Below are positions 2,254 through 64,000 of a stretch of DNA of 64,000 nucleotides, piece after piece (position 1 is the first letter of the stretch; the number at the start of each line of letters is the position of its first letter). The stretch comes from Escherichia coli (GTDB lineage: Bacteria; Pseudomonadota; Gammaproteobacteria; Enterobacterales; Enterobacteriaceae): NCBI RefSeq assembly GCF_041886205.1, contig NZ_CP169029.1; one strand, written 5' to 3'. The translations under genes and the position numbers were made by a program. The notes below the pieces were generated by a model. The model had not been told where the DNA came from. It was given only the letters and a program-made list of their open reading frames with translations, and made no database searches.

Positions 2254-3879
2254 TTACACACACACTCCCCCCGTCGCCCGCAGCAATAAATCATTCTGGA
2301 TCTGCTCTGACAACCGTACGCCGCCGCGCGTATCTAACATCACCTGACACCACGCCTGCGCCATTGGCGGAGAGGCATATTTCAACATTTGCGCACCGCA
2401 GCCCAGCAGGAATAGCTGATGAGTAATCTCTCGCCCCAGTTCTTCAGCTGGCTTACGCAGCTGCTGCTGTAAACGACGAACCGCGCGATCAAAATAGCGA
2501 TCCTGCCCTTTCACTTCCACAAATGCTTCCGACAATAAGTCGTATACGCCCGCTTGCTTATTGAGAACGCGCAGCACATCCAGGCACATAATGTTGCCGG
2601 AACCTTCCCAAATACTGTTTACCGGCATCTCCCGGTAAAGCCGCGGCAGCTCGCTCTCCTCGCAATAACCAATGCCGCCCAGCACCTCCATCGCTTCGGC
2701 CACAAACGGCATACCTCGTTTGCAGATCACAAATTTTGCCGCAGGTGTAAATAAACGCGCCCACAGAGCTTCTTTGGCATCGGCGCGCCGGTCCCACGCT
2801 CGCGCAAGACGAAACAGCAACGCCGTTTGCCCTTCAAGCTGAAGTGCCATGCGACTTAAGACATGACGCATAAGGGGCTGTTGGATCAATGGATTACCAA
2901 AAACATGGCGTTGATGTGCATGATAAATCGCCAGCGAAAATGCACGGCGCATCATGGCATGGCTACCCAGGGCGCAATCAAAACGCGTCATCCCCCCCAT
3001 TTTCAGGATCAGACGAATTCCTTCCCCTTCCTGCCCCAATAACCAGCCAATGGCATCCTGAAACTCCACTTCACAACTGGCGTTAGAGCGATTACCCAGC
3101 TTATCTTTCAGCCGTTCGAGGCGAATCGCGTTGCGTTGCCCGTCAGGCAAAAAGCGCGGCACAAAAAAGCAGGACAAACCGCCCGCGGTCTGCGCCAGCA
3201 CCAGATGCGCATCGCTTTGCGGAACCGAGAAAAACCATTTATGCCCCACCAGCCGATAAGAGCCATCCTCCAGACGCTCTGCGCGGGTGGTGTTGCTCAT
3301 GACATCGGAACCGCCCTGCTTTTCCGTCATTCCCATGCCAATCAACAAACCGCGTTTTTGCCCACCTGGCAATAAGTGAGAATCGTAGCGATCGCTCAAC
3401 AGCGGCGTGGTCCAGTCCTGAAACGGCGTGGGTAACATCTGTAACAACAATGGCGTGGCGGCAAAGGTCATCGTTATTGGACATAACGACCCCGCCTCAA
3501 CCTGTGCGTGCAACATAAAACGCGCCGCGCGCGCCACAAATGCGCCGGAGCGAGCGTCTTCTTCCCAGGCAAGATTGTGCACCCGATTGGTACATAGCGC
3601 CTGCATCAGCAGGTGCCAGGCGGGGTGAAAACGCACATCGTCCAGACGGCGTCCTTGCGCATCGTAGCGCAATAATTCGGGCGGATTCACATTCGCCAGC
3701 CGCCCCAGTTCAAGGGATTCAGCCGTTCCTAACTGCTGACCAATACTGGCTAGAAAATCGCTATCCCAGCCAGCTCCTTCACGCGTTACCGCTTCGCAAA
3801 GCGCGCCATCAGACAGGTATAAGTTGCTGTTATTTAATGGTATAGGTTGATTAAAAACGGTGTGAGTTTGCCAGTGCAC
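2254..3879 (-). CDS. aidB: isovaleryl-CoA dehydrogenase-like adaptive-response protein AidB
   Basis: Track ORF 547 aa; recognised AidB sequence beginning at GTG (VHWQTHTVFNQ) giving 541 aa. Confidence 0.9.
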   Translation of the reverse strand: MHWQTHTVFNQPIPLNNSNLYLSDGALCEAVTREGAGWDSDFLASIGQQLGTAESLELGRLANVNPPELLRYDAQGRRLDDVRFHPAWHLLMQALCTNRVHNLAWEEDARSGAFVARAARFMLHAQVEAGSLCPITMTFAATPLLLQMLPTPFQDWTTPLLSDRYDSHLLPGGQKRGLLIGMGMTEKQGGSDVMSNTTRAERLEDGSYRLVGHKWFFSVPQSDAHLVLAQTAGGLSCFFVPRFLPDGQRNAIRLERLKDKLGNRSNASCEVEFQDAIGWLLGQEGEGIRLILKMGGMTRFDCALGSHAMMRRAFSLAIYHAHQRHVFGNPLIQQPLMRHVLSRMALQLEGQTALLFRLARAWDRRADAKEALWARLFTPAAKFVICKRGMPFVAEAMEVLGGIGYCEESELPRLYREMPVNSIWEGSGNIMCLDVLRVLNKQAGVYDLLSEAFVEVKGQDRYFDRAVRRLQQQLRKPAEELGREITHQLFLLGCGAQMLKYASPPMAQAWCQVMLDTRGGVRLSEQIQNDLLLRATGGVCV

Positions 3880-3962: not shown

Positions 3963-5126
3963 TTATCCAGCAATGTAATGCGGAACGAAACGTGAGCTGT
4001 CTTTGGTGATCAGCGTGTTATCTTCACGGATCCCCATTCCGCACGCTTCATCATCGACAATCCAGCTACCGATGAGTGTGTAGCTATCGCCAAATCGCGG
4101 CAGAGGTTGAAACGCCTGGTAGATCATCGGTTCATCGGCGTAATCACCATCAGCGTGGTCAACGACGTTATTCTGACCGTCGAAAATGGTGACGTTGCCG
4201 CCTTCGCGCGAGTAGATCGGTTTACGCACATAGCTTTCGCCAGCGGCAATCTGCGATTTTTCACCCTCAAACCAGGATGCAAGAAGGTTAGGATGACCAG
4301 GAAAGAAGCGCCAAAGCAGCGGCATTAGCCCTTTATTACTCAAGATACTTTTCCATAACGGCTCCACCCATTGCTCGCGACGCTTGCGCAGCAGCGGACC
4401 GTTATCGTCACGCATCATCCACTCCAGCGGATACAGCTTAAATGCACGCTGGATGACATTATCATCAAGATCGGTCAGTACGCCGCCGACGCCCAAACCG
4501 AGATCTTCAATGTAGATAAACCGCGACTCCTGCCCTGCCTGCTGGGCGCAGTCCTGCAAGTACAGCACGGTGCTCCTGTCTTCATCGGTGTCCTGACAGC
4601 AGCAAAAATAAAACGGTTCCCGACTGTAAAGCTCACTAAAGCGCGAAATCAGGCGTTCCTGAATGGCATTGTACTGATCGGCATCACGCGGAATAATGCC
4701 GCTGCGCCGGGCATCCTCCAGCCACAACCACTGGAAATAAGCCGACTCATACAACGAGGTCGGCGTATCAGCGTTGTACTCCAGCAACTTAACCGGTGCA
4801 TTGCCACACCAGGCAAAATCCATACGGCCATACAGCGAAGGATCGCGTGCGCGCCAGCTTTCGGCGATCACATCCCAGTACAACGACGGGATCGCCAGTT
4901 GCGTCAGGATCTCTTCGTCTTTAACCGCGCGATCCACCACCTCAAGACACATCTGATGCAGTTCCGCAGTCGGTTTTTCGATCTGCTCTTCAATCTGGCG
5001 CAGAGTAAAACGGTAAGCCCGACTCTCGTCCCAATAGATTTCATTGTCGATGATATGAAAGTCGAAACCGTTGTCAGCGGCGATTTGGTCCAGATCCCGC
5101 CGCACAGGAACGTTGTGTCTCAGCAT
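3963..5126 (-). CDS. yjfC: ATP-grasp protein YjfC (glutathionylspermidine synthetase-like)
   Basis: Track ORF trimmed to MLRHNVPVRR start (387 aa); matches E. coli YjfC. Confidence 0.85.
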   Translation of the reverse strand: MLRHNVPVRRDLDQIAADNGFDFHIIDNEIYWDESRAYRFTLRQIEEQIEKPTAELHQMCLEVVDRAVKDEEILTQLAIPSLYWDVIAESWRARDPSLYGRMDFAWCGNAPVKLLEYNADTPTSLYESAYFQWLWLEDARRSGIIPRDADQYNAIQERLISRFSELYSREPFYFCCCQDTDEDRSTVLYLQDCAQQAGQESRFIYIEDLGLGVGGVLTDLDDNVIQRAFKLYPLEWMMRDDNGPLLRKRREQWVEPLWKSILSNKGLMPLLWRFFPGHPNLLASWFEGEKSQIAAGESYVRKPIYSREGGNVTIFDGQNNVVDHADGDYADEPMIYQAFQPLPRFGDSYTLIGSWIVDDEACGMGIREDNTLITKDSSRFVPHYIAG

Positions 5127-31700: not shown

Positions 31701-32107
31701 CGTTTATTACCGAGCAGTTTATCAACTGGTCGCTCTCTGACTCGGTCACGCGCGTGGTGTTGACGATTCCGGCCCCTGCCGATGCCAACAGTGAAGAAGT
31801 GACGGAAATCCTGCTCACCGCAGCGCGTCGCTGCTCGCTGGTGATCGACAACCCGGCACCGGAAGTCTTCCTGGTGGATCTGCAACAGGGGATTCAGATT
31901 TTCGAGCTGCGTATTTACGCCGCTGAGATGGGTCACCGTATGCCGCTACGCCATGAGATCCACCAGCTAATTCTGGCAGGCTTCCATGCCCACGGTATCG
32001 ATATGCCATTCCCGCCCTTCCAGATGCGTCTGGAAAGCCTGAATGGTAAACAAACGGGGAGAACATTAACTTCTGCGGGCAAAGGTCGTCAGGCGGGAAG
32101 TTTGTAA
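28784..32107 (+). CDS. mscM: miniconductance mechanosensitive channel MscM
   Basis: 1107 aa ORF: signal peptide, long Gln-rich coiled-coil periplasmic domain, multi-TM region and MscS-like C-terminal domain. Confidence 0.9.
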   Translation: MRLIITFLMAWCLSWGAYAATAPDSKQITQELEQAKAAKPAQPEVVEALQSALNALEERKGSLERIKQYQQVIDNYPKLSATLRAQLNNMRDEPRSVSPGMSTDALNQEILQVSSQLLDKSRQAQQEQERAREIADSLNQLPQQQTDARRQLNEIERRLGTLTGNTPLNQAQNFALQSDSARLKALVDELELAQLSANNRQELARLRSELAEKESQQLDAYLQALRNQLNSQRQLEAERALESTELLAENSADLPKDIVAQFKINRELSAALNQQAQRMDLVASQQRQATSQTLQVRQALNTLREQSQWLGSSNLLGEALRAQVARLPEMPKPQQLDTEMAQLRVQRLRYEDLLNKQPLLRQIHQADGQPLTAEQNRILEAQLRTQRELLNSLLQGGDTLLLELTKLKVSNGQLEDALKEVNEATHRYLFWTSDVRPMTIAWPLEIAQDLRRLISLDTFSQLGKASVMMLTSKETILPLFGALILVGCSIYSRRYFTRFLERSAAKVGKVTQDHFWLTLRTLFWSILVASPLPVLWMTLGYGLREAWPYPLAVAIGDGVTATVPLLWVVMICATFARPNGLFIAHFGWPRERVSRGMRYYLMSIGLIVPLIMALMMFDNLDDREFSGSLGRLCFILICGALAVVTLSLKKAGIPLYLNKEGSGDNITNHMLWNMMIGAPLVAILASAVGYLATAQALLARLETSVAIWFLLLVVYHVIRRWMLIQRRRLAFDRAKHRRAEMLAQRARGEEEAHHHSSPEGAIEVDESEVDLDAISAQSLRLVRSILMLIALLSVIVLWSEIHSAFGFLENISLWDVTSTVQGVESLEPITLGAVLIAILVFIITTQLVRNLPALLELAILQHLDLTPGTGYAITTITKYLLMLIGGLVGFSMIGIEWSKLQWLVAALGVGLGFGLQEIFANFISGLIILFEKPIRIGDTVTIRDLTGSVTKINTRATTISDWDRKEIIVPNKAFITEQFINWSLSDSVTRVVLTIPAPADANSEEVTEILLTAARRCSLVIDNPAPEVFLVDLQQGIQIFELRIYAAEMGHRMPLRHEIHQLILAGFHAHGIDMPFPPFQMRLESLNGKQTGRTLTSAGKGRQAGSL

Positions 32108-32257
32108 TGCATGAAGCTGCCAAATGATGTCAACGTGGCTCATTTAGCAGCTTAACATCATCTTCAGTTATCACCGGCCCTGGAGAGTATCATCCATACG
32201 CATTACTTCCAGACAACTCATCGCCGGAGAGACGATGAGTTGCAGGATTTCATATGA

Positions 32258-33760
32258 TCAGTCGAGAGCTAACTCAGGTTTGTTCGCCATGCGACTGCAA
32301 TAGTTCTGGTAAATCGCCATCGCTAACAGCGAGAAGAAGACAGGGCCGCCAATCATCCACAATGTGCTGTCCCAGTCTCCGGCTTCAACCACAGGTTGAA
32401 TGATGGTGAAGACGTTCGCAAATGTCACCACCAGTACGACAACCACTGTTGCGATCATTGCCGACATACGCGTTTTGAAAATCACAAACGGTCTGTCGAG
32501 ATCCTGACGTGCTTTAAAGAATGGGAAAGCCAGCGCGAGGAACAGGTAAGGAAGCGTCATAGACACGTTCGCCATCAGCGTCAGTTTGTTAAAGAACGCC
32601 GATGCGGTGCCACCGCCAAACGAAACCAGCAGGATGAAGACAGTAACCAACCCGCACTGCATCCACATGGCGATAGAAGGCATACCCATCGTATTCAGGC
32701 GCGTCATCGGTTCCGGCCACAATGCTTTCGGCGTTCCCTGGATGATGGCTTTCAGCGGTGAATAGCAAAGCGTAAAGAACGCACCGGTATAAGCGAGGAA
32801 CATCGAAAGCCCGGTAATACGCGCAAACCATACGCCCAGCGACAATGACGCTTCTGGTGACAAATGCAGTGCGTTACCCAGCGTCACCCCGAGGCTCTTC
32901 ATCAGCACATAGGTAATATTGCCGAGGTTAACGGAACCATTACTTAATACCTGCTGCCAGTTTGTGCTGACGCCCCATAAAAATATTGCCAGCGAATAAC
33001 CGATTGAAATAACAATAGCGGCAAAAACAATACCTTTGGCAAAGTTCTTTTCTGGATTTTCCGTTTTATCGACCAGACCACCAACCGCTTCAATTCCGCC
33101 ATAGGCAAAAATGGCAAATACCACAAACGATAGCATTGCCAGACCGGACTGATAACCTGGGTTCGGTGATGCAAGGAAATTAATATCCTGCGCGAAATGC
33201 CCACCATTTAATAACAAAATAGTAATGCTTACTAACAGCAATACTAAGTTCAGACACATTACTGCAATACCGCCCACCGCAGTAATGCGGGCAATTTTAT
33301 TAATCCCCTTTGAAGCAACGACGGTGACCAGAATCATCCATGCCACTGCCAGCAGACCAACCACCTGCGTAGGCTCCAGTCCGGCAATACGCCAGTGCTG
33401 GGTCATGTCGCTACCATAGAGGAATGTTGAGAACGGTACCCAAACTTTCGCGGAGGTGCTCACCATCCAGATGATATAAGAGGAAAACCACATAAACGTA
33501 CCAATGAAGGCAAAACGTGGTCCGACACTATTATTCATCCAGGAATAGATACCACCTTCTTCTTTGCGATAAGCAGCTCCCATTTCAGCCATCATTAAGG
33601 CGAATGGAATAAAGAATAACAATGCAGAAAATATATAAAAGGGAATCGCACTATAACCCATTAAGTAATAAGCCGATGGGCTATTGGCAAATCCAAATAC
33701 GGAAGTAAAGATCATCAATATGAGTCCTATCAGACTCATCTTTTTTATCGTGTGAGGCAT
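32258..33760 (-). CDS. yjeM: APC-family amino acid/polyamine transporter YjeM
   Basis: Track ORF 514 aa trimmed to MPHTIKKMSL start (500 aa). Confidence 0.85.
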   Translation of the reverse strand: MPHTIKKMSLIGLILMIFTSVFGFANSPSAYYLMGYSAIPFYIFSALLFFIPFALMMAEMGAAYRKEEGGIYSWMNNSVGPRFAFIGTFMWFSSYIIWMVSTSAKVWVPFSTFLYGSDMTQHWRIAGLEPTQVVGLLAVAWMILVTVVASKGINKIARITAVGGIAVMCLNLVLLLVSITILLLNGGHFAQDINFLASPNPGYQSGLAMLSFVVFAIFAYGGIEAVGGLVDKTENPEKNFAKGIVFAAIVISIGYSLAIFLWGVSTNWQQVLSNGSVNLGNITYVLMKSLGVTLGNALHLSPEASLSLGVWFARITGLSMFLAYTGAFFTLCYSPLKAIIQGTPKALWPEPMTRLNTMGMPSIAMWMQCGLVTVFILLVSFGGGTASAFFNKLTLMANVSMTLPYLFLALAFPFFKARQDLDRPFVIFKTRMSAMIATVVVVLVVTFANVFTIIQPVVEAGDWDSTLWMIGGPVFFSLLAMAIYQNYCSRMANKPELALD

Positions 33761-54968: not shown

Positions 54969-55044
54969 GCCCGGATAGCTCAGTCGGTAGAGCAGGGGAT
55001 TGAAAATCCCCGTGTCCTTGGTTCGATTCCGAGTCCGGGCACCA
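54969..55044 (+). tRNA. pheU: tRNA-Phe (GAA)
   Basis: 76 nt exact match to E. coli tRNA-Phe (gcccggatagctcagtcggtagagcaggggattgaaaatcccc...cacca); located after yjdC as pheU is in E. coli. Confidence 0.95.
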
Positions 55045-55241
55045 AATTCATATCAACGGACCTCCACGGAGGTCCGTTTTTCGTTTCAGAACGCCACAAT
55101 TTAAGCGTTCTACCTACAAATCAATTCTACCGAACTCAACCAGATTCCCCCCACATCAACCCCATTGTGTGGGTATAATTGCGGGCATACCCCAGTTCGA
55201 CAGAATTTGTACCCTCTTTAACGCATTCAGAAGGCTATACT

Positions 55242-56504
55242 ATGGCACTGACTGACGCAAAAATCCGGGCTGCAAAGCCCACTGACAAGGCTTATAAACT
55301 CACTGACGGGGCTGGCATGTTCCTACTGGTTCATCCTAATGGTTCCCGTTACTGGCGTCTCCGTTATCGTATTCTGGGTAAGGAGAAGACTCTGGCACTT
55401 GGTGTGTATCCAGAAGTTTCTCTCTCCGAAGCTCGTACAAAACGGGATGAGGCCCGAAAACTGATTTCGGAGGGGATTGACCCTTGCGAACTGAAAAGAG
55501 CTAAAAAAGTAGTCCCTGATTTACAACTCTCTTTTGAACATATTGCACGACGCTGGCATGCCAGTAATAAACAATGGGCACAATCACACAGCGATAAAGT
55601 ACTCAAAAGCCTCGAGACACACGTTTTCCCCTTTATCGGCAACCGGGATATCACAACACTCAGTACCCCGGACCTGCTTATCCCTGTTCGTGCTGCAGAA
55701 GCTAAACAAATTTATGAAATCGCCAGTCGTCTGCAGCAAAGAATATCTGCTGTAATGCGTTATGCCGTACAGTCTGGCATCATCAGATATAACCCGGCTC
55801 TGGATATGGCTGGTGCATTGACCACGGTAAAACGCCAGCATCGCCCTGCACTGGATCTTTCACGCCTGCCTGAACTTCTGTCGCGTATTGACGGTTATAA
55901 AGGCCAGCCTGTCACCCGACTGGCAGTTATGCTGAATTTACTGGTTTTTATTCGTTCCAGTGAACTCAGATACGCCCGCTGGTCTGAAATTGATATTGAC
56001 AATGCCATGTGGACTATTCCAGCCGAACGCGAACCTCTGCCTGGCGTAAAATTCTCACACCGGGGCTCCAAGATGCGAACACCACATCTTGTGCCACTCA
56101 GCAAACAGGCTGTAGCCATACTGGCAGAACTACAGACATGGGCTGGTGAAAATGGTCTGATCTTTACGGGAGCACATGACCCGCGTAAACCAATCAGTGA
56201 AAATACTGTAAATAAAGCCCTGAGGGTGATGGGGTATGACACAACCCAGGATGTCTGTGGCCATGGATTCCGGGCGATGGCGTGCAGTGCATTGATTGAA
56301 TCAGGTTTGTGGTCCCGCGATGCTGTGGAACGTCAGATGAGCCATCAGGAGCGTAATGGTGTACGTGCTGCGTATATCCATAAAGCAGAACATCTGGAAG
56401 AACGGCGACTGATGTTGCAATGGTGGGCCGATTTTCTGGATGCGAACCGGGAGAAGGGTATCAGTCCGTTTGAATATGCAAAAATTAACAATCCATTAAA
56501 ATAG
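55242..56504 (+). CDS. P4-type tyrosine integrase (tRNA-associated genomic-island integrase)
   Basis: 420 aa ORF starting MALTDAKIRAAKP, 198 nt downstream of tRNA-Phe; C-terminal catalytic region with HGFRAMACS (H-x-x-R) and nucleophile Tyr in RAAYIHK; appears full length. Confidence 0.85.
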   Translation: MALTDAKIRAAKPTDKAYKLTDGAGMFLLVHPNGSRYWRLRYRILGKEKTLALGVYPEVSLSEARTKRDEARKLISEGIDPCELKRAKKVVPDLQLSFEHIARRWHASNKQWAQSHSDKVLKSLETHVFPFIGNRDITTLSTPDLLIPVRAAEAKQIYEIASRLQQRISAVMRYAVQSGIIRYNPALDMAGALTTVKRQHRPALDLSRLPELLSRIDGYKGQPVTRLAVMLNLLVFIRSSELRYARWSEIDIDNAMWTIPAEREPLPGVKFSHRGSKMRTPHLVPLSKQAVAILAELQTWAGENGLIFTGAHDPRKPISENTVNKALRVMGYDTTQDVCGHGFRAMACSALIESGLWSRDAVERQMSHQERNGVRAAYIHKAEHLEERRLMLQWWADFLDANREKGISPFEYAKINNPLK

Positions 56505-56590
56505 TAAGCAGTCCGGGCAATCAGCCCGGACTGCTGGTGATGCTGCCAACTTACTGATTTAGTGTATGATGGTGTTTTTGAGGTGCTCCA

Positions 56591-56866
56591 GTGGCTTCTG
56601 TTTCTATCAGCTGTCCCTCCTGTTCAGCTACTGACGGGGTGGTACGTAACGGCAAAAGCACCGCCGGACATCAGCGCTATCTCTGCTCTCACTGCCGTAA
56701 AACATGGCAACTGCAGTTCACTTACACCGCTTCTCAACCCGGTACGCACCAGAAAATCATTGATATGGCCATGAATGGCGTTGGATGCCGGGCAACTGCC
56801 CGCATTATGGGCGTTGGCCTCAACACGATTTTACGTCACTTAAAAAACTCAGGCCGCAGTCGGTAA
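56591..56866 (+). CDS. insA: IS1 protein InsA
   Basis: 91 aa [43 protein letters not shown]. Confidence 0.95.
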
Positions 56867-57288
56867 CCTCGCGCATACAGCCGGGCAGTGACGTCATCGT
56901 CTGCGCGGAAATGGACGAACAGTGGGGCTATGTCGGGGCTAAATCGCGCCAGCGCTGGCTGTTTTACGCGTATGACAGGCTCCGGAAGACGGTTGTTGCG
57001 CACGTATTCGGTGAACGCACTATGGCGACGCTGGAGCGTCTTCTGGGCCTGCTGTCGGCCTTTGAGGTCGTGGTATGGATGACGGATGGCTGGCCGCTTT
57101 ATGAATCACGCCTGAAGGGAGAACTGCACGTTATCAGCAAGCGATATACGCAGCGCATTGAGCGGCATAACCTGAATCTGAGGCAGCATCTGGCAAGGCT
57201 GGGCAGGAAGTCACTGTCGTTCTCAAAATCGGTGGAGCTGCATGACAAAGTTATCGGGCATTATCTGAACATAAAACACTATCAATAA
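56785..57288 (+). CDS. insB: IS1 InsB frame (expressed as InsAB' transposase by -1 frameshift)
   Basis: 167 aa ORF overlapping insA in the -1 frame, ending ...[19 protein letters not shown]. Confidence 0.9.
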
Positions 57289-57354
57289 GTTGGAGTCATT
57301 ACCCGCTTTGCTTTAGCGAGAACTGGTCTTTTATTCGCACTCAGGAGTACATGT

Positions 57355-58116
57355 ATGAGGATTTGCAGCGACCAACCTTGTATTGTTTTATTGACTGAAA
57401 AAGATGTCTGGATAAGGGTGAATGGGAAAGAACCTATTAGCCTTAAAGCTAACCATATGGCGTTATTAAATTGTGAAAATAATATTATCGACGTCTCCTC
57501 TCTTAACAACACTTTGGTTGCTCATATTAGTCACGACATCATCAAAGATTACCTCCGGTTTCTGAATAAAGATCTCTCGCAAATACCAGTATGGCAACGT
57601 AGCGCTACGCCCATACTCACCCTGCCATGCCTGACGCCAGACGTCTTTCGCGTTGCCGCGCAACACAGCATGATGCCCGCAGAAACTGAGTCAGAAAAGG
57701 AACGAACACGCGCATTATTATTCACGGTGCTATCCCGTTTTCTCGACAGTAAAAAATTCGTTTCATTAATGATGTATATGTTACGTAATTGTGTAAGTGA
57801 CAGCGTTTATCAAATTATTGAAAGCGATATTCACAAAGACTGGAATCTTAGTATGGTAGCCAGTTGTTTATGTCTTAGCCCAAGTCTGTTAAAGAAAAAG
57901 TTGAAAAGCGAAAACACCAGTTATAGCCAAATAATCACCACCTGCCGCATGCGTTATGCCGTAAATGAATTAATGATGGACGGTAAAAATATCTCTCAGG
58001 TATCACAGTCCTGCGGCTACAACAGTACGTCGTACTTTATTTCTGTCTTTAAAGACTTCTACGGTATGACGCCGCTGCATTATGTTAGTCAGCACAGAGA
58101 ACGCACTGTCGCCTGA
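57355..58116 (+). CDS. adiY: AraC-family regulator AdiY
   Basis: 253 aa ORF MRICSDQPCIVLLTEKDVWIRVNGKEP matching AdiY; begins only 51 nt after the IS1 end. Confidence 0.9.
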   Translation: MRICSDQPCIVLLTEKDVWIRVNGKEPISLKANHMALLNCENNIIDVSSLNNTLVAHISHDIIKDYLRFLNKDLSQIPVWQRSATPILTLPCLTPDVFRVAAQHSMMPAETESEKERTRALLFTVLSRFLDSKKFVSLMMYMLRNCVSDSVYQIIESDIHKDWNLSMVASCLCLSPSLLKKKLKSENTSYSQIITTCRMRYAVNELMMDGKNISQVSQSCGYNSTSYFISVFKDFYGMTPLHYVSQHRERTVA

Positions 58117-58252
58117 TTTTTAACCTTAACGAAGAGCTATATTAATAACGGCATCAGCGATAACCCGGTCGATAATAATTCAACTATCGAATGCAGGCGT
58201 ATGATATGACGTAATTTATTGTCACGAAGCTCGCCTTCGCAGGAGTTTAATT

Positions 58253-59590
58253 ATGTCTTCGGATGCTGATGCTCACAAAGTGGGCTTAATCCCCGTCACC
58301 CTGATGGTGTCGGGGAATATTATGGGGTCAGGTGTTTTTCTGTTACCTGCAAACCTGGCCTCTACTGGCGGGATTGCCATTTATGGATGGTTGGTGACGA
58401 TTATCGGTGCACTGGGGCTCTCGATGGTATACGCCAAAATGTCGTTCCTCGACCCAAGTCCTGGTGGTTCTTACGCTTACGCCCGCCGCTGCTTTGGCCC
58501 GTTTCTCGGTTATCAAACCAACGTCCTCTACTGGCTGGCCTGCTGGATCGGCAATATCGCCATGGTGGTCATTGGCGTAGGATATTTAAGTTACTTCTTC
58601 CCGATTCTGAAAGATCCATTGGTATTAACCATCACCTGCGTCGTGGTGCTGTGGATCTTCGTCCTGCTGAACATTGTCGGTCCGAAAATGATCACCCGTG
58701 TGCAGGCAGTTGCCACCGTGCTGGCGCTGATCCCCATCGTCGGGATTGCCGTATTTGGCTGGTTCTGGTTCCGTGGTGAAACCTATATGGCGGCATGGAA
58801 CGTCAGCGGCCTGGGCACCTTCGGTGCAATTCAAAGTACCCTTAACGTTACGCTGTGGTCGTTCATCGGTGTGGAAAGTGCCTCCGTTGCCGCAGGTGTG
58901 GTGAAAAACCCGAAACGCAATGTCCCTATCGCCACCATTGGTGGGGTATTGATTGCCGCCGTTTGCTATGTACTTTCTACCACCGCGATTATGGGGATGA
59001 TCCCTAATGCCGCACTGCGCGTTTCTGCTTCGCCATTCGGTGATGCCGCACGGATGGCGTTGGGTGACACCGCCGGGGCCATTGTTTCCTTCTGCGCAGC
59101 TGCGGGTTGCTTAGGTTCACTGGGCGGCTGGACGTTGCTGGCGGGTCAAACGGCGAAAGCCGCTGCCGATGACGGACTGTTCCCACCGATTTTTGCCCGT
59201 GTAAATAAAGCGGGTACGCCAGTGGCGGGGCTGATTATCGTCGGTATTTTGATGACCATCTTCCAGCTCAGCAGCATTTCACCAAACGCGACCAAAGAGT
59301 TCGGTCTGGTTTCTTCCGTCTCGGTCATCTTTACACTGGTGCCATATCTTTACACCTGTGCGGCGTTACTGCTGCTCGGACACGGTCACTTTGGTAAAGC
59401 ACGCCCGGCATATCTGGCAGTTACTACCATTGCCTTCCTCTACTGCATCTGGGCCGTGGTGGGGTCCGGAGCGAAAGAGGTTATGTGGTCATTTGTCACC
59501 CTGATGGTCATCACCGCCATGTATGCGCTGAATTACAACCGGCTACATAAAAACCCGTATCCCTTAGATGCACCAATAAGCAAAGATTAA
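58253..59590 (+). CDS. adiC: arginine:agmatine antiporter AdiC
   Basis: 445 aa [39 protein letters not shown] matching AdiC. Confidence 0.95.
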
Positions 59591-59693
59591 TTCCCCTTAA
59601 TCCAGCAAACATAAAAGCCAACCTTAAGAACTTAAGGTTGGCTTAATTTTGCTTTGCGAGCATATGCGCACTTTGTTCGATGGAAACACCGTG

Positions 59694-61337
59694 ATGTTGA
59701 AGCGCCTACTAAAAAGACCCTCTTTGAATTTACTCGCCTGGCTATTGTTGGCCGCTTTTTATATCTCTATCTGCCTGAATATTGCCTTTTTTAAACAGGT
59801 GTTGCAGGCGCTGCCGCTGGATTCGCTGCATAACGTACTGGTTTTCTTGTCGATGCCGGTCGTCGCTTTCAGCGTGATTAATATTGTCCTGACACTAAGC
59901 TCTTTCTTATGGCTTAATCGACCACTGGCCTGCCTGTTTATTCTGGTTGGCGCGGCTGCACAATATTTCATAATGACTTACGGCATCGTCATCGACCGCT
60001 CGATGATTGCCAATATTATTGATACCACTCCGGCAGAAAGTTATGCGCTGATGACACCGCAAATGTTATTAACGCTGGGATTCAGCGGCGTGCTTGCTGC
60101 GCTGATTGCCTGCTGGATAAAAATCAAACCTGCCACCTCGCGTCTGCGCAGTGTTCTTTTCCGTGGAGCCAATATTCTGGTTTCTGTACTACTGATTTTG
60201 CTGGTCGCCGCACTGTTTTATAAAGACTACGCCTCGTTGTTCCGCAATAACAAAGAGCTGGTGAAATCCTTAAGCCCCTCTAACAGCATTGTTGCCAGCT
60301 GGTCATGGTACTCCCATCAGCGACTGGCAAATCTGCCGCTGGTGCGAATTGGTGAAGACGCGCACCGCAACCCGTTAATGCAGAACGAAAAACGTAAAAA
60401 TTTGACCATCCTGATTGTCGGCGAAACCTCGCGGGCGGAGAACTTCTCCCTCAACGGCTACCCGCGTGAAACTAACCCGCGGCTGGCGAAAGATAACGTG
60501 GTCTATTTCCCTAATACCGCATCTTGCGGCACGGCAACGGCAGTTTCAGTACCGTGCATGTTCTCGGATATGCCGCGTGAGCACTACAAAGAAGAGCTGG
60601 CACAGCACCAGGAAGGCGTGCTGGATATCATTCAGCGAGCGGGCATCAACGTGCTGTGGAATGACAACGATGGCGGCTGTAAAGGTGCCTGCGACCGCGT
60701 GCCTCACCAGAACGTCACCGCGCTGAATCTACCTGATCAGTGCATCAACGGCGAATGCTATGACGAAGTGCTGTTCCACGGGCTTGAAGAGTACATCAAT
60801 AACCTGCAAGGTGATGGCGTGATTGTCTTACACACCATCGGCAGCCACGGTCCGACCTATTACAACCGCTATCCGCCTCAGTTCAGGAAATTTACCCCAA
60901 CCTGCGACACCAATGAGATCCAGACCTGTACCAAAGAGCAACTGGTGAACACTTACGACAACACGCTGGTTTACGTCGACTATATTGTTGATAAAGCGAT
61001 TAATCTGCTTAAAGAACATCAGGATAAATTTACCACCAGCCTGGTTTATCTTTCTGACCACGGTGAATCGTTAGGTGAAAATGGCATCTATCTGCACGGT
61101 CTGCCTTATGCCATCGCCCCGGATAGCCAAAAACAGGTGCCAATGCTGCTGTGGCTGTCGGAGGATTATCAAAAACGGTATCAGGTTGACCAGAACTGCC
61201 TGCAAAAACAGGCGCAAACGCAACACTATTCACAAGACAATTTATTCTCCACGCTATTGGGATTAACTGGCGTTGAGACGAAGTATTACCAGGCTGCGGA
61301 TGATATTCTGCAAACTTGCAGGAGAGTGAGTAAATGA
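59694..61337 (+). CDS. eptA: lipid A phosphoethanolamine transferase EptA (PmrC)
   Basis: Track ORF trimmed to [22 protein letters not shown] start (547 aa). Confidence 0.9.
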
Positions 61338-62002
61338 AAATTCTGATTGTTGAAGACGATACGCTGTTATTGCAGGGACTGATTCTGGCGGCGCAAACCG
61401 AAGGCTACGCGTGCGATGGCGTGACAACCGCGCGGATGGCGGAACAAAGCCTTGAGGCCGGTCATTACAGCCTGGTGGTACTGGATTTAGGGTTACCCGA
61501 CGAAGATGGACTGCATTTTCTCGCCCGTATCCGGCAGAAAAAATACACCCTGCCGGTACTGATCCTCACCGCTCGCGATACGCTGACCGACAAAATCGCC
61601 GGGCTGGATGTCGGTGCCGATGACTATCTGGTGAAGCCCTTTGCGCTGGAAGAGTTACACGCCCGTATCCGAGCCCTGCTACGACGCCATAATAATCAGG
61701 GCGAAAGTGAGCTGATTGTTGGCAATCTGACGCTGAATATGGGTCGCCGTCAGGTATGGATGGGCGGTGAAGAGTTGATTCTGACGCCCAAAGAATATGC
61801 TCTGCTGTCACGGTTAATGCTCAAAGCAGGCAGTCCGGTGCATCGGGAAATTCTCTACAACGACATCTATAACTGGGACAATGAACCCTCGACCAACACC
61901 CTGGAAGTGCATATCCACAATCTGCGCGACAAAGTGGGCAAAGCCCGTATCCGCACCGTGCGCGGCTTTGGCTATATGCTGGTCGCGAATGAGGAAAACT
62001 AA
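61334..62002 (+). CDS. basR: two-component response regulator BasR (PmrA)
   Basis: 222 aa [19 protein letters not shown] with receiver-domain Asp; start overlaps eptA stop (ATGA). Confidence 0.95.
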
Positions 62003-62011
62003 TTGAATCTG

Positions 62012-63103
62012 ATGCGTTTTCTGCGCCGACCAATATCGCTGCGCCAACGGCTGATATTGACCATCGGGGCCATTTTGTTGGTGTTTGAGCTGATCAGCGT
62101 CTTCTGGCTATGGCATGAAAGTACCGAGCAGATTCAGCTGTTTGAGCAGGCGCTACGCGACAATCGCAACAACGATCGCCACATCATGCGTGAGATCCGC
62201 GAGGCGGTCGCCAGCCTGATTGTCCCCGGCGTCTTTATGGTCAGCCTGACGCTATTTATCTGCTATCAGGCGGTACGCCGCATCACCCGCCCGCTGGCGG
62301 AGCTGCAAAAAGAGCTGGAAGCGCGCACCGCCGACAACTTAACGCCCATTGCCATTCACAGCGCCACCCTCGAAATCGAAGCGGTGGTTTCGGCGTTAAA
62401 CGATCTGGTCAGTCGCCTGACCAGCACGCTGGATAACGAAAGGTTGTTTACCGCTGACGTCGCGCACGAACTGCGAACGCCACTGGCGGGGGTGCGTTTG
62501 CATCTGGAACTGCTGGCGAAAACGCATCACATTGATGTAGCACCGTTAGTGGCACGGCTTGATCAGATGATGGAGAGCGTCTCCCAGCTGCTGCAACTGG
62601 CGCGTGCCGGACAGTCATTTTCTTCCGGTAATTATCAACATGTAAAACTGCTGGAAGATGTCATTCTCCCCTCGTATGACGAACTCAGTACCATGCTCGA
62701 CCAGCGACAGCAAACCCTGCTATTGCCAGAGAGCGCCGCCGACATCACCGTTCAGGGTGATGCAACCCTGCTGCGGATGTTATTGCGAAACCTGGTAGAA
62801 AACGCCCATCGTTACAGCCCGCAAGGCAGCAACATTATGATTAAGCTGCAAGAAGATGACGGAGCGGTCATGGCAGTTGAAGATGAAGGACCAGGTATTG
62901 ATGAGAGTAAATGCGGGGAGTTGAGTAAAGCGTTTGTACGTATGGACAGCCGTTATGGCGGGATTGGTCTGGGGTTAAGTATTGTCAGCCGCATTACACA
63001 GTTGCATCACGGGCAGTTTTTCCTGCAAAACCGGCAAGAGACTTCCGGCACGCGGGCCTGGGTACGGCTGAAGAAAGATCAGTACGTGGCAAACCAGATA
63101 TAA
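62012..63103 (+). CDS. basS: two-component sensor kinase BasS (PmrB)
   Basis: Track ORF (TTG at 62003) trimmed to ATG giving MRFLRRPISLRQ (363 aa); H-box ADVAHELRTPL. Confidence 0.9.
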   Translation: MRFLRRPISLRQRLILTIGAILLVFELISVFWLWHESTEQIQLFEQALRDNRNNDRHIMREIREAVASLIVPGVFMVSLTLFICYQAVRRITRPLAELQKELEARTADNLTPIAIHSATLEIEAVVSALNDLVSRLTSTLDNERLFTADVAHELRTPLAGVRLHLELLAKTHHIDVAPLVARLDQMMESVSQLLQLARAGQSFSSGNYQHVKLLEDVILPSYDELSTMLDQRQQTLLLPESAADITVQGDATLLRMLLRNLVENAHRYSPQGSNIMIKLQEDDGAVMAVEDEGPGIDESKCGELSKAFVRMDSRYGGIGLGLSIVSRITQLHHGQFFLQNRQETSGTRAWVRLKKDQYVANQI

Positions 63104-63279
63104 AGAAAGCTGCTGACCACCAGCACGCTGAACACGGTAGTTAAACTTTCATAAACACGGTTTTTCATTGCACTCTCCTCCGTTAACCTGGAGGAGAGTA
63201 TGCGCGTCAGAGATTAAGTGAACCTTAAGAGTTCAATTGGCCTGATAAGACAGCGTCACATCAGGCCATCCGTTTCAGC

Positions 63280-64000
63280 TTATTCATCAATTCGCGGATG
63301 TTGCTGCACCAGGCGGGTACGTTTCGCCTGCAAATCGGCAATCTCGTGGTCAATATTATCGATTTTCTGCTCGATATTATCGTAATGCTCGACGAGAATT
63401 TCCTTCGCTTCCTGTATATCTGACGCCGCCGGTGTCGCACCTTTCAACGGACGATTTGCCGTCTCTTTCATGGTTACGCCGGTGATTAAACCAATCACCG
63501 CCACTACCATCAGGTAATAGGCAGGCATCATCAGATTCTGCGAGCTTTCGACCAGCCAGGCCGCCAGTGTTGGCGTCAGACCGGCAACCAGCACCGAAAT
63601 ATTAAATGCCGCCGCCAGCGCGCTGTAACGGATATGCGTCGGGAACATCGCTGGCAAGGTAGAAGCCATAACGCCCGTAAAGCAGTTAAGGATCACCGCC
63701 AGCATCAGTAACCCGGCAAAAATCAGGCCGATGACGTTACTGTTAATCAGAATAAACGCCGGGATCGCCAACACAAACAGGGCAACACTACCAAGTAGCA
63801 CAAACGGACGACGGCCAAAACGGTCACTCAGCAAGCCCATCACCGGCTGGACAAACAGCATACCGATCATAATGGCGATAATAATCAGCACCCCGTGGTC
63901 TTCGGAGTAATGCAAGTTATGCGACAAATAACTCGGCATATAGGTCAGCAACATGTAGTAAGTCACGTTGGTGGCAATTACCAGACCAATACATGTCAAC
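63280..64000 (-). CDS. proP: osmoprotectant/proton symporter ProP, 3' portion (5' end outside window)
   Basis: ORF open to window edge; C-terminal coiled-coil tail ...DIQEAKEILVEHYDNIEQKIDNIDHEIADLQAKRTRLVQQHPRIDE characteristic of ProP. Confidence 0.85.
   Translation of the reverse strand, partial: LTCIGLVIATNVTYYMLLTYMPSYLSHNLHYSEDHGVLIIIAIMIGMLFVQPVMGLLSDRFGRRPFVLLGSVALFVLAIPAFILINSNVIGLIFAGLLMLAVILNCFTGVMASTLPAMFPTHIRYSALAAAFNISVLVAGLTPTLAAWLVESSQNLMMPAYYLMVVAVIGLITGVTMKETANRPLKGATPAASDIQEAKEILVEHYDNIEQKIDNIDHEIADLQAKRTRLVQQHPRIDE

Follow-up and report, generated by a model that had tools for sequence, protein, structure and literature searches.

IS1 without a target-site duplication at a deletion joint between a pheU island integrase and adiY in Escherichia coli

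Organization of the pheU-adiY region

We analyzed a stretch of 64,000 nucleotides of Escherichia coli DNA (hereafter referred to as the window), in which one complete IS1 element separates an integrase gene of a tRNA-associated island from adiY (Table 1). No other IS was found in the 64-kb window, which is collinear with K-12 outside the IS1 locus. Upstream of IS1, the dsbD-dicD-pheU context is the same as in K-12, and homology to the K-12-type integrase remnant stops at position 55158. The intact integrase encoded beyond this point contains the Pfam domains Arm-DNA-bind_3, Phage_int_M, and Phage_integrase, and exactly the same protein is encoded on 20 contigs, among them one from E. coli ZYB39. 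A spacer of 31 nt (56505–56535) lies between the integrase stop codon and IS1. Downstream of IS1, the gene order is adiY, adiC, eptA, and basRS.

Table 1 Features of the IS1 locus, and coordinates of comparable IS1 junctions in other loci. Positions refer to the window unless a locus is named.
Feature	Position	Strand	Remarks
tRNA-Phe (GAA), pheU	54969–55044	+	Island attachment site; ARAGORN
Island stub	55045–56535	+	attL-side DNA and integrase gene, sole remainder of the island; 1491 bp, 100% identical to ZYB39
P4-type tyrosine integrase	55242–56504	+	Intact, 420 aa; stop codon TAG at 56502–56504
Perfect hairpin	56507–56535	+	12-bp stem, 5-nt loop aatca; arms 56507–56518 and 56524–56535
Left flanking 9-mer	56527–56535		cggactgct; left deletion joint between 56535 and 56536
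IS1	56536–57303	+	Complete, 768 bp; direct sequence reading; start GGTGATGCTGCC, end GGAGTCATTACC
IS1 terminal repeat IRL	56536–56558		GGTGATGCTGCCAACTTACTGAT
IS1 terminal repeat IRR	57281–57303		Complement present
insA	56591–56866	+	91 aa, GTG start; protein identical to K-12 InsA (IS1A)
insB frame	56785–57288	+	167 aa, intact; match to PF03400 (DDE_Tnp_IS1)
A6C slippery motif	56842–56848	+	ttaaaaaactc; -1 frameshift yielding the InsAB' transposase
Right flanking 9-mer	57304–57312		cgctttgct; right joint between 57303 and 57304
adiY	57355–58116	+	51 bp from the right end of IS1; cut off from the deleted adiA
IS1 junctions at integrase hairpins	56507–56535 (window); 4600–4615 (L001); 3070–3103 (L018); 2575–2595 (L035); 2555–2576 (L036)
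9-mer copies flanking IS1 upstream of adiY	3996–4004 and 4773–4781 (L002)		Two further cases in L019 (STIN_95) and L020

The integrase hairpin and the left flank

A preliminary description of the locus had reported a perfect inverted repeat with an 11-bp stem in the spacer, immediately followed by IS1. The repeat is real and lies within the 31-nt spacer, but its stem comprises 12 bp; IS1 does begin at the very next base. As RNA, the hairpin folds with -28.6 kcal/mol (z = -5.1 compared to shuffled sequences). In intact islands, a T-rich tail (tttaactgattatttttc) follows a stem of 13 bp. Hence, the junction in the window removed the outermost pair of the hairpin and replaced the T-rich tail by IS1. 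Of the 12–13 pairs in the stem, nine are G-C; the native tail on the integrase strand, TTTAACTGATTATTTTTC, is T-rich but interrupted, and a terminator scan flagged the hairpin element on the opposite strand only. A related integrase at leuX has a different hairpin at the same place, which fits a conserved role in termination. Since the element is present in intact islands, we rejected an origin from IS1 or from the rearrangement itself and regard the hairpin as native to the 3' end of the integrase gene, where it likely serves as a terminator.

How the left flank continues in the presence of an island can be seen in ZYB39: beyond the pheU-int-hairpin segment, this strain carries a composite island that exceeds 50 kb. 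At the point of the joint, the ZYB39 sequence reads gcccggactgct and then ttaactgattattttt (also given as gcccggactgct and then ttaactgattatttttc) into the island. Strain SCU-102 and several draft genomes show the same continuation past the hairpin. The ZYB39 pheU island (locus L037, 19000–27000) is densely packed with IS remnants and defence genes, the latter including those for a CBASS cyclase, a large AAA/PLD helicase-like protein, a reverse transcriptase, and a CdiI/VENN toxin fragment. None of 5,426 complete E. coli genomes contains the exact left junction of the window, and a 36-mer spanning it was absent from the GTDB species representative genomes.

The IS1 element

The element has the features of IS1 proper, namely a length of ~768 bp, imperfect inverted repeats of ~23 bp, insA and insB, the A6C site, and the DDE_Tnp_IS1 domain. 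In homologous IS1 copies, the programmed frameshift is annotated in RefSeq. Compared to IS1A of K-12, the copy in the window is 97% identical, with 23 differences that are unevenly distributed: an exact-anchor comparison located three of them in positions 1–499 and 20 in positions 500–717. The InsB protein differs from K-12 InsB at nine of 167 residues (S5C, S65R, G84E, M87L, S88G, P92A, D94E, I97V, and K113E), so that the earlier remark on a variant InsB was correct.

IS1 is thus a mosaic. Its positions 1–495 represent the IS1A haplotype and have best matches of at least 99% identity in 5,726 records; the type represented by positions 496–768 is less common, with just 62 records at 99% or above. 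The exact InsB protein is rare, as a look-up in the gene collection retrieved only eight short contigs. Four IS1 copies elsewhere (L041, L043, L045, and L046) are identical to the one in the window except for position 109 (56644 in the window), where the difference, G109A, is synonymous in insA. Since this nearly identical mosaic occurs in other assemblies with unrelated flanks, it must be older than the present locus and is uninformative on the event that took place here. We also looked for a chimeric IS1 specific to this locus, which would favor recombination between two copies, but did not find one, as the mosaic is shared with other contexts. The nearest chromosomal copies of the isoform are from E. 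coli (99.2% identity), and further E. coli and metagenome contigs carry it as well. Among the plasmid matches, the top ones listed have at most 98.9% identity and none of them is from Shigella; 72 Shigella records match the isoform.

Sequences flanking IS1

IS1 in the window lacks the direct duplication of 8–9 bp that a simple insertion leaves. The 9-mers on its two sides match at only six of nine positions, as already stated in the preliminary description, and our script found neither an identical 9-bp nor an identical 8-bp direct repeat upon re-examination of the flanks. The same script recovered perfect duplications of 8–9 bp for five control IS1 copies (in KFu022, TOE3, STIN_95, Tig228, and isolate 12). 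The six positions that the two unrelated 9-mers have in common form the pattern CG....TGCT. By a binomial estimate that assumes equal base use, the chance of a match at six or more of nine positions is ~0.01. This likeness is mildly unusual, yet it is no duplication; it could reflect a target preference of IS1 or coincidence.

The right flank begins exactly at cgctttgct and is 100% identical to wlxctx60 (6697/6697 positions) and 99.95% identical to K-12. In K-12, wlxctx60, 6EVA, and LHM10-1, this 9-mer is present as a single, uninterrupted copy. In contrast, IS1 separates adiA from adiY in KFu022, TOE3, and STIN_95; it occupies exactly the same base pair in the same orientation as in the window, and a perfect duplication of the 9-mer flanks it. 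Both copies of the duplication in STIN_95 carry a SNP of that lineage (cgcttcgct). Each of the three strains has an IS1 isoform of its own; compared to the copy in the window, these isoforms show 22, 38, and 50 differences. Three isoforms at the same base pair indicate independent hits of a recurrent IS1 target. Other strains contain IS1 elsewhere within the adiA-adiY spacer. The divergent IS1 of STIN_95 occurs once more inside adiY (locus L019, 3684–4451), with an 8-bp duplication (CAAGTCTG).

Size and content of the deletion

Each flank was compared separately with related genomes, ZYB39 for the left flank and K-12, wlxctx60, and 6EVA for the right flank. The two flanks are not adjacent in these relatives, and each of them is collinear with its reference up to the terminus of IS1. 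Because the flanks are distant from each other in the relatives and each is perfect up to the IS1 tip, we interpret the missing duplication as a deletion joint. The preliminary description had named a reference with a simple IS1 insertion in the same uninterrupted target as evidence against a deletion. Such insertions do exist, but they concern the right half of the joint only, which strengthens the deletion reading.

The gap between the two flank points amounts to 22,812 bp in 6EVA and 24,456 bp in K-12. The missing interval contains cadCBA, dtpC, lysU, ghoST, yjdIJ, dcuSR, dcuB, fumB, yjdF, melA, melR, and adiA, and additionally melB in K-12. In the closest relatives (loci L032–L034), melB is absent and melA adjoins yjdF. 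As the closest relatives thus do not have melB, the missing backbone is 22.8 kb compared to them and 24.5 kb compared to K-12. The closest relatives 6EVA and LHM10-1 retain pheU, an integrase remnant, and the segment from cadCBA to adiA-adiY, and they contain neither a full integrase nor IS1 at adiY. In the window, no cad DNA is found between pheU and adiY. Taken together, these genome comparisons indicate that at least 23 kb have been removed, comprising the cad/adi backbone and the rest of the interior of the tRNA-Phe island. None of the 5,426 complete E. coli genomes has the integrase, IS1, and adiY together in one place.

Genomic background of the strain

The window is closely related to ordinary E. 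coli. Positions 1–33298 are 99.991% and positions 57304–64000 are 100% identical to wlxctx60, and the segment 32300–55044 is essentially identical to wlxctx60, 6EVA, LHM10-1, CP52E, and VE-T9, all of which are ordinary E. coli isolates from animals and humans. At positions 32107–32295, 188 bp replace ~743 bp of K-12 (yjeN-yjeO region); since this replacement also occurs in wlxctx60, it is a lineage feature unlinked to the IS1 event. The preliminary description had connected the variant IS1 with Shigella-type IS1 families. This connection finds no support: the flanks are 99.99–100% identical to those of non-Shigella E. coli, the 64 kb contain one IS, and the isoform is found in E. coli and metagenome contigs.

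In the nearest relative, wlxctx60 (NZ_AP045833; locus L032, 42560–43860), an independent loss has removed cadCBA together with the 5' portion of dtpC. The scar there is a quite different element of the IS1 family, which is not IS1 proper, next to the pheU integrase remnant.

Recurrent IS1 junctions at integrase hairpins and upstream of adiY

Together with the one in the window, we identified five independent IS1 junctions in or beside 3' hairpins of P4-type integrase genes, and in all five the IRL of IS1 faces the integrase. A target-site duplication is absent from four of the five. In GPT21-003_1, IS1 is positioned 2 bp further to the right at the hairpin, without a duplication, and a deletion extends into an AAA gene of the island. 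In L73, IS1 lies 22 bp further to the left, again without a duplication, and the deletion extends into a phosphoethanolamine-transferase gene. In strain 3908, IS1 is located beside the K-12-type integrase remnant, and the region from cadCBA to ghoT is deleted. The exception is Tig228, where a simple IS1 insertion with an 8-bp duplication resides in a hairpin arm of a related integrase. Two draft contigs (L013 and L014) end inside the integrase hairpin.

One conceivable explanation is an orientation-biased preference of IS1 for the bases of P4-type integrase hairpins and for the 9-mer upstream of adiY, which different isoforms have targeted on four or more occasions, each time in the same orientation; alternatively, the recurrent insertions upstream of adiY may have been selected through altered expression of the H-NS-silenced adiY. 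We regard both ideas as speculative and improbable. If either were true, the loss of cad, adi, and island cargo would be repeatable and predictable rather than random.

Origin of the deletion joint

An IS1-bounded deletion joint is a textbook case of a well-understood kind of IS rearrangement, of which the locus studied here is another instance. Adjacent deletions and recombination between IS copies are frequent documented causes of IS copies without target-site duplications (PMC11708052; PMC7373316). Three routes would yield exactly the observed sequence: an adjacent deletion that started from the adiY site, the same process with the hairpin site as its origin, and homologous recombination of two directly repeated IS1 copies. 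With moderate confidence, we favor an adjacent deletion for which one IS1 copy and its transposase would have been responsible, leaving the IS1 in the window as the scar. In this scenario, an island would first have integrated at pheU, giving rise to the order pheU-int-island-cadCBA...adiA-adiY. IS1 would then have entered the recurrent site upstream of adiY, at a distance of 51 bp, where it duplicated cgctttgct; this state is seen in KFu022, TOE3, and STIN_95. During a subsequent intramolecular replicative transposition, the IS1 ends would have attacked cggactgct just past the integrase hairpin, and resolution would have retained a single IS1 whose right flank was the old one and whose left flank was new, while the interval would have been lost on a non-replicating circle. 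IS1 may alternatively have inserted at the hairpin first and then attacked the adiY site. This order would lead to the same product, and we rate it as less likely.

Sequence and genome comparisons show that the flanks come from different places in related genomes, that both breaks fall exactly at the IS1 termini, that the right one coincides with a 9-mer proven to be an IS1 target, and that the element is intact; from this we infer both the order of events and the action of transposase rather than RecA. The one-IS1 route, and more specifically insertion at adiY first, is favored because the adiY precursor has been observed and because no insertion is needed at a left site where IS1 has never been seen. 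None of the 5,426 genomes, 3,323 of which contain the integrase region, has a simple IS1 insertion at the left site; as no such insertion is known, the one-IS1 route needs fewer unobserved steps. That both junction regions are recurrent IS1 sites, however, counts against fixing the order of events.

The preliminary description had read the absence of a duplication as the product of either an IS-mediated deletion or recombination between two IS1 copies. A deletion, as opposed to a simple insertion, is well borne out. RecA-dependent recombination between two directly repeated copies, located at the cggactgct and cgctttgct sites and deleting the interval, is in our view possible but rather unlikely. 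It would account for the exact flanks, with half of each duplication left, and missing duplications have been traced to such recombination before (PMC11708052; PMC7373316). Insertions at the adiY site are present in three genomes, the simple insertion of Tig228 in an integrase hairpin arm is flanked by the 8-bp duplication GTCCGGGG, and the IS1 copies at both sites are all in the orientation required for a deletion. On the other hand, two earlier insertions and a crossover would be required, one of these insertions being at the left site where the complete genomes show none, and the window and its relatives are poor in IS in this region. The IS1 in the window also shows no locus-specific chimerism, which is still compatible with this route since recombination of identical copies would leave no trace.

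The remaining explanations are far less probable. A joint formed by illegitimate recombination at a TGCT microhomology that ended at the IS1 tip, or by capture of IS1 at a double-strand break, would be in line with the 4 bp shared at the joint between the island (...gacTGCT/ttaa) and the precursor (...cttTGCT/GGTG), and break capture has been proposed for some duplication-less IS movements (PMC11708052). However, a 4-bp match is weak and arises fairly often by chance, the left joint lies exactly at the IS1 terminus, and the right joint is to the base the 9-bp target that IS1 used three other times. Classical IS1 chemistry suffices here without extra assumptions, and we thus consider both variants very improbable. 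We give equally little credit to an assembly artefact, in which two IS1 copies around an intact island-cad-adiA segment would have been collapsed by the assembler. Draft assemblies often contain collapsed IS1 contigs (such as the 768-bp contig L046, or L013 and L014 with their ends at the hairpin), and the structure occurs in none of the 5,426 complete E. coli genomes. Yet the window is a continuous 64-kb sequence, both sides of which are collinear with wlxctx60 at 99.99–100% identity, no ambiguous bases, hybrid IS1, or other signs of a collapse are present in its sequence, and comparable IS-bounded losses of cadCBA are found in the finished genomes of wlxctx60 and strain 3908. The match at six of nine flanking positions might finally suggest a simple IS1 insertion whose 9-bp duplication decayed by point mutation. 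This explanation has next to no probability, as all related genomes have at least 22.8 kb between the flanks, and either flank agrees fully with its reference up to the IS1 end; we rejected it because it would require three substitutions in a stretch of 9 bp next to 6.7 kb without a single one, which is not credible.

Consequences of the deletion

The deletion left int, adiY, and adiC as orphans and the terminator-like element of the integrase gene without its T-rich tail. From the genes missing in the interval, the strain is predicted to have lost lysine decarboxylase, adiA-dependent arginine acid resistance, the use of melibiose, DcuSR, DcuB, and FumB, and LysU. The locus demonstrates that a loss of cadCBA beside pheU occurs outside Shigella and enteroinvasive E. 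coli. Together, wlxctx60, strain 3908, and the window point to repeated, independent IS-mediated losses of cadCBA at almost the same place in non-Shigella E. coli. Beyond annotation, the significance of the scar itself is small, as it adds one more natural IS1-bounded deletion. In practice, the lack of a target duplication together with a separate comparison of each flank suffices to call such scars.

Comparison with known systems

Maurelli et al. (1998) and Day et al. (2001) reportedly described cadA 'black holes' in Shigella and enteroinvasive E. coli (EIEC). The locus in the window resembles a black hole in that cadCBA has been lost beside pheU, and that an IS and a P4-like integrase are found at the scar. 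Unlike in these pathogens, the background is non-Shigella, the 64-kb window has one IS, which is unlike the IS-rich chromosomes of Shigella/EIEC, adiA is lost as well, and no virulence context is visible in the window. Black holes of Shigella and EIEC are also covered by later literature (PMC4156367; PMC7373316). Expression of adiA and fumB has been reported for S. flexneri (PMC4229854), and both genes are thus apparently retained there. As judged from the sequence, the resemblance to the cadA black hole is functional only, and membership in this class is not supported.

The tRNA gene pheU is also the location of the SHI-3 island in S. boydii (PMC1550401). With other islands of pheU and pheV that encode P4-type integrases, the locus shares the attachment tRNA, and its integrase and 3' hairpin are those of ZYB39. 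In contrast to intact pheU islands, only 1.49 kb (attL and int) are left, and neither attR nor cargo remains.

Adjacent (replicative) deletions mediated by IS1 are said to have been described by Reif and Saedler (1975) and by Turlan and Chandler (1995, EMBO J 14:5410). The locus is similar to such deletions in having one intact IS1, one original and one new flank, a joint exactly at the IS terminus, and no duplication. It differs from the laboratory cases because it stems from a natural isolate, its far end lies beside a terminator-like hairpin, the flank that was kept is a recurrent insertion site, and the role of the transposase is deduced from the product.

Large IS-associated deletions without target duplications were also observed in evolution experiments with E. 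coli by Ngan et al. 2024 (PMC11708052). In these experiments, all 14 IS-associated deletions in E. coli B lines involved IS150 and a case in E. coli C involved IS5, and time series support a two-step route (PMC11708052). Whereas that study concerned IS150 and IS5 and followed time series, the element in the window is IS1; in both systems, an IS without a duplication lies beside a deletion at the kb scale, and the same causes come into consideration (PMC11708052).
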